Assembly: GCA_963785725.1 (NCBI GenBank)
Contig: CAWAWS010000007.1
Location: 544,001-608,000, forward strand
Direction: 5' to 3'
DNA: 64,000 nt
DNA from: an uncultured delta proteobacterium
Lineage (GTDB): Bacteria; Myxococcota_A; Polyangia; Palsa-1104
A program made the translations under genes and the position numbers. Shown here piece by piece: positions 45,814 through 48,970 of the stretch; position 1 is the stretch's first letter; each line of letters begins with the position of its first letter. The notes under the pieces were generated by a model. The model worked only from the letters and a program-made list of their open reading frames with translations, searched no databases and was not told where the DNA came from.

Positions 45814-45894
45814 CTTATTGTCACTTCGACAATAAGCCCAGACTTCGCGTCACCGCGACAATAAGGTTCGACTTACTGTCGAATCGACAGTAAC
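45814..45894. repeat. Three tandem 23-bp palindromes CTTATTGTC-N5-GACAATAAG, 29-bp period
   Basis: 45814 CTTATTGTC-ACTTC-GACAATAAG; 45843 CTTCGCGTC-ACCGC-GACAATAAG; 45872 CTTACTGTC-GAATC-GACAGTAAC. Confidence 0.9.
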
Positions 45895-48041
45895 TACTTG
45901 CGACGCAAGAGCAGCGCTTCGCCGAGCAGCAGCAGCAGCAGCGCGGCGCCGAGCGTGTGCCATAGCTCGACGCGGCGCTTGGGCACCGCTTGCGCCGACG
46001 CCGCGCCGCCGCCGGCCGTGAGCGCGCGCAGCCGCGCGGCGTCGATGGGCGTCGGATCGGACTCGGCCGCGTCCACATCGATGACGAAGCTGGCGTCGGG
46101 CCGCGCCCGCATGACGCCGTCGCGACCGGCGGCGGCGACGCGGTAGATGCCGGGCTCGTCCGTGGCCTCGAAGCCGAGCAGCCGCCGCCCCGCGACCTTG
46201 TCCTTCTCGAACGCCAGCTGCTTGCCCGATGGTTGCGTCACTTCGACGCGAAGGTCGCCGTCGTGCAGCGGGATCTCGTGGCGCTGTCCGACGGTCTGCG
46301 CCGCTTCCGGATCGTGCATGGGCGCGCGGGCGAGATAACGCGTGGCCTGCTGCATGAGCGGCAAGAAGGCCGGCTGAATCGGCAGATCGGTCCAGTCGCG
46401 ATCGAGCGTCGACGCCCACACGAGCACGCGGCCGGCGCCGAGGCGACCTTCGAGCAGCGCCGGCGCGCCGTCGGCAAAGCGCAGGAGAACCTGCCGTTCG
46501 CCTTCGGGGCGCGGGCGAAACAGCGCGTAACGCGAGAAGCGCGCCGCTTGCAATGCCTCGCCCGCCTGCGCGTCGGCGAGCGGCGCGAGCAGCGGATGAT
46601 TGCGGTCGATGCGCCCGAGGCGCATGCCGTCGCCGCCGGCGCGGCGCTCGCCATCGTCGCGATCGGCGGCCGTGGCGCCGACGGTGCGCAGCGTCTGCAG
46701 CGGCTGCGGCAACAGATCGCCGAGCGCGCCGTTGTAAGCGTCGGAGTCGACGTTGTCGCCGAGCGCGATGAAGAGGCCGCCGCCGCTTTGCACGTACTCG
46801 CGCAGCGCGTCGCCGTCGGGCTGCTTGACGTTGCACAAGAAGACGACGTCGAAGTCGGCGAGGCGGCGACCGGCCAATTCGTCGGCGGCGACGGTGCTGA
46901 CGTCGAGCTGTGAGTCGTCGCGATCGCCGGGCCGCAGCGCGGTCTCCAAGTAGAACACTTCGTCGTCGCGGCGCGAGGTGCGCGGATCGCCGTCGACGAC
47001 GAGCACCCTCAGCGCGCGCCGGACTTCGACGCGGGCGAAGCGGCGGTCATCGAGCGGCAGGACGTCGGGCAAAAGCTCGGCGGTGACGTCGTAGACGCCG
47101 AGCTCGCCGCCGCCGGCGCGCGGCTCGAGCACGTGGAAGAAGCGCTTGATGGCGCGCCCGTGCGCCGGCACGTCGACGAGCCCTTTGGCCACGGCGTGCC
47201 CGTCGACGCGCAAGGTCATCGGCAGCTCCTTGACCGCTTGCGCGCCGAAGTTGGCGACGTCGACGGAGATGCGCACGCCGCGCGGCCCGAGATGCGGCGC
47301 CGGCTCGGTGCGCACGTCGACGACGGCGCGGTTGGCGGCCGGGGTCCCGTCGCTGACGTCGACGACGACGAGCTCGGGCCCGCGTCCGGCGGCCCACGGC
47401 GGCTCCGAGCCAAACCCATGCGCCGCCAGATCCGACAACAAGTAGACGCGATGCGCCGGCCGCGATGCCGTCACCAGAATCTGCGCCGCCCGCTTGAGCG
47501 CGCCGGTTATGTCAGTTGCACAATAAGTCGGGCGGATCTGGGCCAGCTCGCGCTGCAGCTTGATGCGATCGCCGGTCAATTGCGCCACCGGCGCGCCGCC
47601 GTCGCGGGAGCCGAGGACGATGGCCACTTCCGAGTCGCTGCCGAGCGCGTCGAGGATGCGGCGCGCGCGATACTTCGCCGTCGCCAGCAGCGTGCGTCCG
47701 CTGCGCTCCGCCGACATCGACAGGGAGTCGTCGATGACGAGCACCGCCGACTGCGCGCCGGCCACCGCCGACGCCGGCAAATCGTGGCTCGTGGCCTCGA
47801 CGAAGGGCTTCGCCAAGATCAGCGGCACCGCGGCGATCGCCAGCGCGCGTAAGAGTAGGAGCAGCCAGCGCTGCAGCTTCGTCCGCCGCGCGACGCGGCG
47901 ATCGCTGCGCTGCAAGAGCTCCATCGCGGCGAAGCGGCGCACGCGCGCGCGGCTGCGGCCGATCAAGTGGATGGCGATGGGGATGGCGAAGGTTATTGTC
48001 GCAATGACGTAACCAGGCGACAGAAAGCCGAGCCCGCTCAT
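45894..48041 (-). CDS. BatA/VWA domain membrane protein
   Basis: IPIAIHL...RFAAMELL...LLLLLRALA..LAKPF (BatA N-terminus); MIDAS DDSLS; C-terminal ES...TM-RRK. Confidence 0.88.
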   Translation of the reverse strand: MSGLGFLSPGYVIATITFAIPIAIHLIGRSRARVRRFAAMELLQRSDRRVARRTKLQRWLLLLLRALAIAAVPLILAKPFVEATSHDLPASAVAGAQSAVLVIDDSLSMSAERSGRTLLATAKYRARRILDALGSDSEVAIVLGSRDGGAPVAQLTGDRIKLQRELAQIRPTYCATDITGALKRAAQILVTASRPAHRVYLLSDLAAHGFGSEPPWAAGRGPELVVVDVSDGTPAANRAVVDVRTEPAPHLGPRGVRISVDVANFGAQAVKELPMTLRVDGHAVAKGLVDVPAHGRAIKRFFHVLEPRAGGGELGVYDVTAELLPDVLPLDDRRFARVEVRRALRVLVVDGDPRTSRRDDEVFYLETALRPGDRDDSQLDVSTVAADELAGRRLADFDVVFLCNVKQPDGDALREYVQSGGGLFIALGDNVDSDAYNGALGDLLPQPLQTLRTVGATAADRDDGERRAGGDGMRLGRIDRNHPLLAPLADAQAGEALQAARFSRYALFRPRPEGERQVLLRFADGAPALLEGRLGAGRVLVWASTLDRDWTDLPIQPAFLPLMQQATRYLARAPMHDPEAAQTVGQRHEIPLHDGDLRVEVTQPSGKQLAFEKDKVAGRRLLGFEATDEPGIYRVAAAGRDGVMRARPDASFVIDVDAAESDPTPIDAARLRALTAGGGAASAQAVPKRRVELWHTLGAALLLLLLGEALLLRRK
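47505..47527. repeat. Intragenic copy of the palindrome
   Basis: GGTTATGTC-AGTTG-CACAATAAG; coding strand ACT TAT TGT GCA ACT GAC ATA. Confidence 0.75.
47992..48014. repeat. Intragenic copy of the palindrome
   Basis: GTTATTGTC-GCAAT-GACGTAACC. Confidence 0.75.
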
Positions 48042-48934
48042 CAGCGACGCCTGCCGCGCGTGCGCCACGCGCCGGTCAGGAACTGCAACAGCGCCTGCGA
48101 CGGCGGCGTCGACGTGTCGATGAGGTGATACTCGACGTCGCCTTCGGCCAGACCGTCGCGATAGCCGTCGATGAAGCGGCCGAGCTCGGCCAAGTAGGCT
48201 TTGCGCACGTCGCCCGGATCGGCGATCAGCTTGGTGTCATCCTCCATCGACTCGAAGACGGTCGTGCCTTCGAACGGCAGCGTCAGCTCGTCGTGATCGA
48301 GGATGTGAAACACGGCCACGTCGTGCTTGCGCGCGCGCAGCCCGCGCAGGAGCGAGCGCACGCGCTCGTCGCTGCCGAGCAGGTCGCTGAAGAACAAGAT
48401 GAGCGAGCGGCGCTGCGCCACCTCCGAGACGTAGGCGATGGCGCGCCCGAGATCGGTGCGCCCTTCGGCGACGACGCCGTCGAGCGCCGTCAACAGGTCG
48501 CCGAGGTGCCCGCCGCGCGATCGCGGCGGCAGAAAGCCGCGCAGCTTCTCGCCGAACGCGACCATCCCCACTTGATCTTGTTGCCGTAACAATAAGTAGG
48601 CGAGCGCCGCCGACAACATGCGCGCGTAGTCGAGCTTGGAGACGCCGCTGCCGCGATAGCTCATCGACGCCGAGCAATCGAGCACCAGATAGGCGCGCAG
48701 CTCGGTCTCCTCCTCGAAGCGCTTGACGTAGTATTTGTCGAACTTGCCGTAAGCCTTCCAGTCGATGTGCTTGATCTCGTCGCCGGGCGCGTACTCCTTG
48801 TGCTCGGCGAACTCGACCGACGAGCCGTGATGCGGCGAGCGATGCAGGCCCGACAGCGCGCCTTCGACGACGGTGCGCGCGCGCAGCTCCAAATTCTGCA
48901 AGCGGGCCAGCGCGAGCGGATCGAGCAGCTCCAT
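48041..48934 (-). CDS. DUF58 domain protein
   Basis: G.HRSP.HGSSVEFAEHKEY.PGD...IDWK...VKRFEEE, DCSASM, FSDL. Confidence 0.93.
   Translation of the reverse strand: MELLDPLALARLQNLELRARTVVEGALSGLHRSPHHGSSVEFAEHKEYAPGDEIKHIDWKAYGKFDKYYVKRFEEETELRAYLVLDCSASMSYRGSGVSKLDYARMLSAALAYLLLRQQDQVGMVAFGEKLRGFLPPRSRGGHLGDLLTALDGVVAEGRTDLGRAIAYVSEVAQRRSLILFFSDLLGSDERVRSLLRGLRARKHDVAVFHILDHDELTLPFEGTTVFESMEDDTKLIADPGDVRKAYLAELGRFIDGYRDGLAEGDVEYHLIDTSTPPSQALLQFLTGAWRTRGRRR
48574..48596. repeat. Intragenic copy of the palindrome
   Basis: GATCTTGTT-GCCGT-AACAATAAG; coding strand TAC TTA TTG TTA CGG CAA CAA. Confidence 0.7.
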
Positions 48935-48947
48935 GTCGACCTAGTTA

Positions 48948-48970
48948 CTTATTGTACGAATGACAATAAG
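48948..48970. repeat. Intergenic copy of the palindrome between the moxR-like and DUF58 genes
   Basis: CTTATTGTA-CGAAT-GACAATAAG, flanked by A and T extending the dyad. Confidence 0.88.

Follow-up and report, generated by a model that had tools for sequence, protein, structure and literature searches.

Bacterial repressors are expected to have few sites, at promoters. Regulators of the NrtR family recognize a 21-bp palindrome with the core GT-N7-AC, and nrtR-#pncA-pncB is among the gene layouts listed for them (PMC2330246). In the DNA complex of BtAraR, the dimer covers 25 bp, Asn181 reads the core A, Arg180 inserts beside the core C, and Lys179 reads a G two bases outside the core (PMC4666351). 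Here, we analyze a 64,000-nucleotide stretch of a bacterial genome (hereafter the window, G000:C7:544001-608000; the G000 assembly comprises 8.9 Mb with a guanine-cytosine (GC) content of 68%), in which a moxR-DUF58-batA operon carries a patch of such palindromes. A preliminary description had proposed that the patch is a unique centromere-like locus bound by a ParB-like, SMC-loader or terminator protein. The motif is instead the GT-N7-AC palindrome found after nrtR, that is, a match to the operator of a known regulator, which the description had named beforehand as an outcome that would tell against its proposal; furthermore, the rest of the genome holds two more patches and nine isolated sites that exceed 18 bits. 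A chromosome-organizing role may still apply, but by way of a co-opted metabolic repressor.

The palindromes and the single NrtR of the genome

The genus sample comprised five genomes (G000 and the congeners G001-G004), and 36 other genomes served as comparison. The main scoring matrix was trained solely on the nrtR loci of the four congeners, and site counts at these loci are therefore not independent; a second matrix was built solely from the nrtR operators of four non-genus genomes. Strict-pattern counts were compared with control patterns in each genome and the matrix scan with a reversed-matrix control. Across G000, 31 sites exceed 18 bits and 27 exceed 20 bits, against 3 and 0 with the reversed matrix. 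The 5-nt spacer yields six sites with at most two mismatches, and 11 other spacers yield none. The core columns G, T, A, and C each reach 0.98, as in the NrtR-family palindrome. A strongly AT-rich contig end, G000:C7:928000-935918, was a source of false motif matches.

The only NrtR_WHD gene detected in G000 is nrtR, which heads nrtR-pncA-pncB-nadE on contig C14; this supports the earlier proposal of a binding protein encoded outside the window. The protein (G000:C14:34338-34949) combines an N-terminal Nudix domain (PF00293) with a C-terminal winged helix-turn-helix domain (PF21906), the sole PF21906 match in the genome. It scores below the cut-off of NCBIfam NF050029 (143 vs 400 bits), and its nearest solved relatives are BtAraR (5BS6, E=9e-36) and SoNrtR (3GZ5, E=7e-32). 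A box follows the nrtR stop codon, ahead of pncA, in nine of nine family members (G000-G004, G010, G012, G013, and G014; NrtR 63-100% identical), G011 being outside this count with a contig that ends 27 bases past nrtR. More distant nrtR loci (G009, G031, G032, and G038; 41-52% identical) gave no box match. When the genome is ranked with the non-genus matrix, which also takes up AT-rich noise below rank 8, the G000 operator comes first and two window sites come second and sixth.

Residues and bases agree in the same direction. Arg180 and Asn181 of BtAraR are kept as Arg170 and Asn171, and the AC core that they read is near-invariant; Lys179 is replaced by Ala169, and the corresponding motif column is free. 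In the Nudix signature, Lys replaces a catalytic Glu, as in SoNrtR. Judged from these comparisons, the single NrtR-family repressor of the genome very probably binds the palindromes, and it is predicted to bind them as a dimer. Its effector is uncertain, because the pocket keeps only some of the contacts to adenosine diphosphate (ADP)-ribose: in an alignment with the SoNrtR pocket, Arg41 and Lys76 are kept (Arg23 and Lys58), Asn43 is Lys and Arg98 is Asp, and both the adenine-stacking N-terminal arm (the SoNrtR pocket includes Tyr10 and Phe15) and the Arg98 equivalent are missing throughout the family.

Within the window, all boxes of Table 1 except those at 46231 and 48731 had been listed in the preliminary description and are present where it placed them, and the 29-bp period and the convergent GH92/BatA gap were likewise correctly given. 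The consensus arms stand in part: four copies match with at most three mismatches, versus none in 100 shuffles, but the arms are less uniform than described (0-6 mismatches of 18, Table 1). Similarly, the statement that no good copy lies elsewhere in the 64 kb holds for the rest of the window, which reaches at most 9.9 bits, but overlooked the boxes at 46231 and, more weakly, 48731; a possible copy at 50015-50037 scores -6.2 bits and is unsupported. Four copies lie inside genes (plus one very weak copy), three in the convergent gap and one in a cistron junction, an arrangement that lacks the promoter overlap of NrtR operators. A scan of 45600-50400 for one promoter type, the sigma-70-like promoter, found none, and an ordinary promoter operator fits the window locus poorly, as had been argued. 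Boxes adjoin the DUF58 start in G001, G002, and G004 as well.

Table 1. Boxes and genes of the window (window positions) and clusters of a second motif (genome:contig:positions). P values refer to a per-site synonymous test that was run on sites chosen for high score and are therefore overstated.
Feature	Position	Strand	Score and remarks
Perfectly palindromic NrtR-type box that opens the tandem triplet (29-bp period) in the convergent GH92/BatA gap	45814..45836		29.5 bits; 0/18 arm mismatches; rank 6 genome-wide with the non-genus matrix
NrtR-type box, second tandem copy	45843..45865		20.4 bits; 3/18 arm mismatches
NrtR-type box, third tandem copy; last base falls in the BatA stop codon	45872..45894		27.5 bits; 3/18 arm mismatches
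NrtR-type box within BatA/vWA gene, not in the preliminary description	46231..46253		22.6 bits; P=2.5e-5
NrtR-type box within BatA/vWA gene	47505..47527		23.9 bits; 5/18 arm mismatches; P<5e-6
NrtR-type box, 5′ end of BatA/vWA gene	47992..48014		22.3 bits; 6/18 arm mismatches; P<5e-6
Weak NrtR-type box within DUF58 gene	48574..48596		11.8 bits; 5/18 arm mismatches; P=8e-5
Possible very weak box within DUF58, uncertain	48731..48753		10.5 bits
NrtR-type box in moxR-DUF58 junction, 14 bp ahead of DUF58 start	48948..48970		28.5 bits; 1/18 arm mismatches; rank 2 genome-wide with the non-genus matrix
GH92 glycoside hydrolase gene, ends at the convergent gap	43294..45807	+
BatA/vWA membrane protein gene with three boxes	45894..48068	-
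DUF58/vWA gene	48041..48934	-
moxR AAA+ ATPase gene, 3′ end approximate	48979..49979	-	at least 2 frame changes in the assembly
TGGT-N3-ACCA cluster (candidate GntR-type)	G000:C7:356573-390620
TGGT-N3-ACCA cluster (candidate GntR-type)	G000:C7:421119-435693
TGGT-N3-ACCA cluster (candidate GntR-type)	G000:C33:40114-52835
TGGT-N3-ACCA cluster (candidate GntR-type)	G000:C33:59019-64006
TGGT-N3-ACCA cluster (candidate GntR-type)	G000:C39:304428-315866

The frame changes in moxR are likely an assembly error, because the alignment of its first 120 residues is unbroken in G001, G003, and G004 but falls into three pieces in G002.

Three patches, their expansion in one genus and their chromosomal position

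The matrix scan delineates three patches in G000: the MoxR operon of the window, eight sites at C14:32.8-38.0 kb, and seven sites above 18 bits at C19:156.6-167.9 kb. No more than 5 kb separate 21 of the 31 sites above 18 bits from their nearest neighbour, whereas random placement gives 1.0 such site (maximum 8; 2000 placements). The patches are not AT-rich islands, because their GC content equals that of the genome. Nearest-neighbour spacings are 29, 29, 30, 35, and 36, then at least 155, with no clear helical phase, and the minimum of 29-30 bp is slightly above the 25-bp footprint of the BtAraR dimer. The C14 patch is the densest and covers nrtR-pncA-pncB-nadE; upstream of nrtR and under this home patch (G000:C14:32063-34090) lie a gene for a small Cys-rich peptide, a gene for an MbnB/TglH/ChrH-family enzyme and a DUF2063 gene. 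The C19 patch sits 42-53 kb from dnaA and covers sugar-nucleotide and membrane genes in G000; in G001, G002, and G004, the near-origin patch extends over genes matching C19:170-181 kb, where G000 has no sites. The latter genes we take, from their sequence starts, to be ligA and menaquinone genes, and smaller site groups in congeners lie on genes that are presumably multihaem cytochrome-like, nuoA/B-like and others. Gene content fails to account for the satellite patches: no site lies on nadA or nadD (best 6.2 bits), and the genes under the near-origin patch differ from congener to congener.

The expansion is confined to the genus. Its members have strict-pattern counts of 17, 30, 9, 6, and 28, with controls at 0-2, whereas the 36 other genomes stay at 0-3, with controls at 0-8. 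By the matrix, the MoxR locus holds 6, 5, 2, and 7 sites in the four congeners and none in seven of seven other genomes, and the nrtR locus holds 6-15 sites in congeners and 1-3 in sister genera. A lone operator, or a few sites grouped around nrtR such as G012 has, looks ancestral.

Inside genes, the boxes follow the genus and not the peptide. The box at 46231 scores 21-23 bits in all four congeners, so that five of five genus members keep it, and at most -2 in four of four aligned outgroups despite a similar peptide. The box at 47505 is present in three of the four congeners and in none of four aligned outgroups, and that at 48574 reaches 13-15 bits in three of the four congeners and at most -4.5 in five of five outgroups. 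At the latter, the conserved peptide YLLL(R/K)QQDQ is encoded with TTA, which makes up 0.8% of Leu codons, together with TTG and CAA. Single sites such as 47992, of which one congener of four keeps a partial copy (15 bits), are recent or were lost in congeners, and thus turn over inside a lasting patch. Furthermore, when all 12 intragenic patch sites are included, half or more of the congeners retain synonymous codons ending in A or T at 21 of 29 arm positions versus 109 of 278 positions outside (P=7e-4); this test supersedes an earlier rare-codon test on seven sites picked as alignable (19/23 vs 84/197). Outgroups lack the effect (1/6 vs 19/84, window genes). Over 107 distinct sites, the two arms pair at 5.39 of 9 positions, against 5.56 expected for independent half-sites; arms that do not covary fit two protein half-sites and do not fit a hairpin, in line with the dimeric-protein site proposed at the outset. 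The copies inside genes are thus under selection as DNA, not as RNA or protein.

The GC skew and the four-fold-site skew of G000 were too weak for placing the origin or terminus, and the position of dnaA (G000:C19:113.7-115.1 kb) was used instead; a dif-like pattern has a single loose match, G000:C26:217120. Canonical parS, the absence of which the preliminary description had proposed as a check, is present in three copies at G000:C19:123687-123777, with one perfect copy alone at C16:16102, and a single ParB_N protein is encoded beside ParA at G000:C6:331449-334730, on a contig other than that of dnaA and the three-site parS cluster. Both ends of C7 are at least 343 kb away from the window patch, and dnaA is on another contig. 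In G002, a genome with long contigs, sites lie under an inferred contig order at about -475, +46, +62-65, +177-189, +339, +804, and +953 kb from dnaA, and its MoxR patch, placed through matches to G000, about -0.9 Mb. The window patch is not a parS-like centromere, because its sequence differs, canonical parS, ParA and ParB are present, there are three patches and it lies far from the contig ends. Of the 39 pattern matches in G002, 23 lie less than about 1 Mb from dnaA, a region that makes up 26% of the genome, and the remainder of 16 is at control level (17 expected), with the 1-Mb limit set after data inspection and clustered sites non-independent; this origin-proximal bias is suggestive. 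A binomial test on G002 loci (8/10) was set aside, as the loci were hand-picked.

A possible docking role and its rivals

Our favoured explanation, the chances of which we judge to be about even, is that the patch is a region-level platform on which NrtR docks and which would mark or tether this part of the chromosome, and not a promoter switch; that it acts by position rather than by switching its host genes is somewhat probable. Briefly, several NrtR dimers would occupy a patch, spread across a few kilobases, and bound patches would contact one another and the home nrtR-pncA-pncB-nadE operon, as proposed for Rok clusters and distant GalR operators. The contacts would concentrate the repressor and shape the origin-proximal chromosome, and a metabolite in the Nudix pocket could release bound patches. 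Physical bridging between patches, which is argued by analogy, is rather doubtful. More broadly, a branch of Polyangia may have turned repressors (NrtR, a GntR-type regulator and probably others) into sequence-programmed chromosome organizers, each factor's operator being amplified through coding sequence into kilobase-scale patches that the factor would coat and tether; this extension is decidedly speculative. If it were true for NrtR, metabolite-switchable anchors near the origin would link cofactor status with nucleoid shape.

Several observations weigh against a docking platform. No sign of NrtR tetramers or DNA bridging was met, though no test for either was made. A second, longer NrtR-like protein (two split matches) occurs at G001:C4:4093-4746, G003:C293:2000-2650, and G004:C179:1890-2558 and was not found in G000. 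All five genus members carry the MoxR patch on one and the same operon, with a strong site 160-200 bp ahead of moxR in three congeners, which fits operon-level repression. G003 is site-poor, with 6 strict matches and no site above 16 bits in the 20 kb examined at the near-origin locus. The origin-proximal count carries the limits given with it, and strong sites occur far from the origin (a pair at G002:C4:2301k, about 2.2 Mb from dnaA, and G000:C5:267139). Five G000 patch sites fall in convergent gaps, an enrichment with P=0.015 by site and 0.25 by locus (hand-entered counts) that is not significant at the locus level and is not taken as support. Finally, the per-site P values are overstated (Table 1), and with all synonymous codons pooled the comparison is marginal (107/138 vs 4095/5864, P=0.06), so the signal rests on A/T-ending codons.

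The main rival, which we consider fairly unlikely, holds that NrtR represses the moxR-DUF58-batA operon via auxiliary operators, through short loops and transcription roadblocks, in a regulon enlarged by the genus. The constancy of the patch on this operon and the upstream site of three congeners agree with it, as do the box just before the DUF58 start, the auxiliary-operator-like layout of three sites around nrtR and pncA in G012, two G001 sites in nuoA/nuoB and the binding of P. aeruginosa NrtR to some promoters outside nicotinamide adenine dinucleotide (NAD) metabolism (PMC8865458). However, the head of moxR lacks a box in G000, where the 50015 candidate fails, and three of its strongest copies sit at the 3′ end; moreover, nadA and nadD have no sites, the near-origin patch shifts among unrelated genes and other regulator-like motifs also form patches in G000. 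Irrelevance of gene content, turnover of single sites and a site number that varies from 6 to 30 among congeners would equally suit decoy reservoirs, which would sequester NrtR and so tune its free concentration or the threshold of its response without any spatial function, but a sponge needs neither tight patches at genus-conserved places nor an origin-proximal bias, and we regard this explanation as improbable.

It is quite improbable that another dimeric protein reads the boxes and that the box behind nrtR is incidental or shared. Such a reader would be compatible with an expansion limited to one genus when nrtR itself occurs family-wide, but the fixed place after nrtR in all nine family members, the family consensus and the residue-to-base agreement argue for NrtR, and strict matches number 0-2 in the relatives that lack an NrtR_WHD match (G005, G006, G008, and G015; 71-98% complete). 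A non-canonical centromere or SMC-loading site would account for clustered dyads inside genes and for one patch close to dnaA; against it stand the canonical parS with one ParB_N protein beside ParA, the number of patches, the distance of the window patch from the contig ends and, by inferred order, from dnaA in G002, and a motif that matches a known regulator family, which together make it highly improbable. Lowest of all do we rank RNA hairpins (terminator-like or repetitive extragenic palindrome (REP)-like) or a mobile repeat, an extremely improbable reading even though the tandem triplet fills a convergent gap and is overlapped by one terminator-like match (the region has four, with 2.3 expected): pairing between the arms does not exceed that of independent half-sites, and the intragenic copies came about through point changes in orthologous codons, their flanks showing no insertion.

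Returning to NrtR as the probable reader, the site of an NAD-salvage repressor was multiplied within one genus onto unrelated genes, at a cost in codon choice, while the ancestral single-operator state persists in sister genera. The protein, the sites and the before-and-after genomes are all available for what would be a dated natural experiment in the passage from transcription factor to nucleoid organizer. If the patches are merely auxiliary operators, they still form an unusually large intragenic operator array.

Comparison with known systems

Other motifs of G000 form comparable groups. TGGT-N3-ACCA places 165 of its 206 G000 copies in five clusters (Table 1) that do not overlap the NrtR patches, and a stricter version of the motif is common across the genus as well as in G012, there often as pairs 20 bp apart. 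The AT-rich palindrome GTGATAGAAATATCAC forms tandem arrays with periods of 26, 63, and 90 bp (G000:C39:656273-664124; C16:366302-366491; C33:208300-209414), and by the array on C39 a gene start at C39:656598-657305 is one that we take to be TetR-like. TCCG-N6-CGGA arrays are mostly intergenic (G000:C15:375215-377945; C7:655008-664907; C14:218765-218934; C17:2506-3352), one of them following genes that are presumably ruvCAB-like. TGAC-N5-GTCA clusters, some overlapping at 4-bp offsets, were seen at G000:C20:250512-254911, C16:27578-27681, and C39:659216-661728. Forming operator patches seems to be a general tendency in this lineage, and NrtR seems a recent example. In the openly accessible literature, judged by titles and abstract starts, no published description of NrtR site patches was found.

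Sites for a single protein that gather at a small number of widely separated loci, as found here, also characterize Rok and GalR. Rok of Bacillus subtilis clusters at few chromosomal loci and has regulatory and structural roles (PMC11841835). However, Rok resembles H-NS, bridges DNA and is backed by Hi-C evidence (PMC11841835), whereas NrtR is a ligand-sensing protein with a long specific palindrome. GalR of E. coli is likewise a metabolic repressor with sites at apparently unregulated genes and has been proposed to restructure the chromosome, but it belongs to the LacI family and its sites lie upstream of genes, with no dense patches written into codons in the available part of that account (PMC5110547). 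RefZ of Bacillus offers a repressor-family member that serves as a positional mark, with palindromic RefZ-binding motifs (RBMs) near oriC and on the chromosome arms; five RBM sites are genus-fixed and have a shown effect on FtsZ (PMC6657595), whereas the present genomes have more sites, turnover and an intact metabolic operon. The patches share clustered and often intragenic dyads with parS/ParB; in contrast to parS, their sequence is another, the canonical system is separate, there is no ParB-like reader and several patches exist, some far from the origin.

The closest described relatives remain the NrtR regulators themselves, with which G000 NrtR shares the Nudix and winged-helix domains with a broken Nudix signature, the 21-bp GT-N7-AC palindrome, the site between nrtR and pncA-pncB (PMC2330246, PMC4666351) and the conserved D-x-R-N-F recognition helix. 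It differs from SoNrtR in the absence of the N-terminal adenine-stacking arm and of the Arg98 equivalent. The described NrtR sites overlap the promoter or sit between promoter and start, one or two per operon (PMC2330246). By contrast, about 30 sites per genome are gathered here in patches, approximately half of them intragenic, and two of the three patches lie on non-NAD genes. The motif family is known; the patch arrangement appears new.

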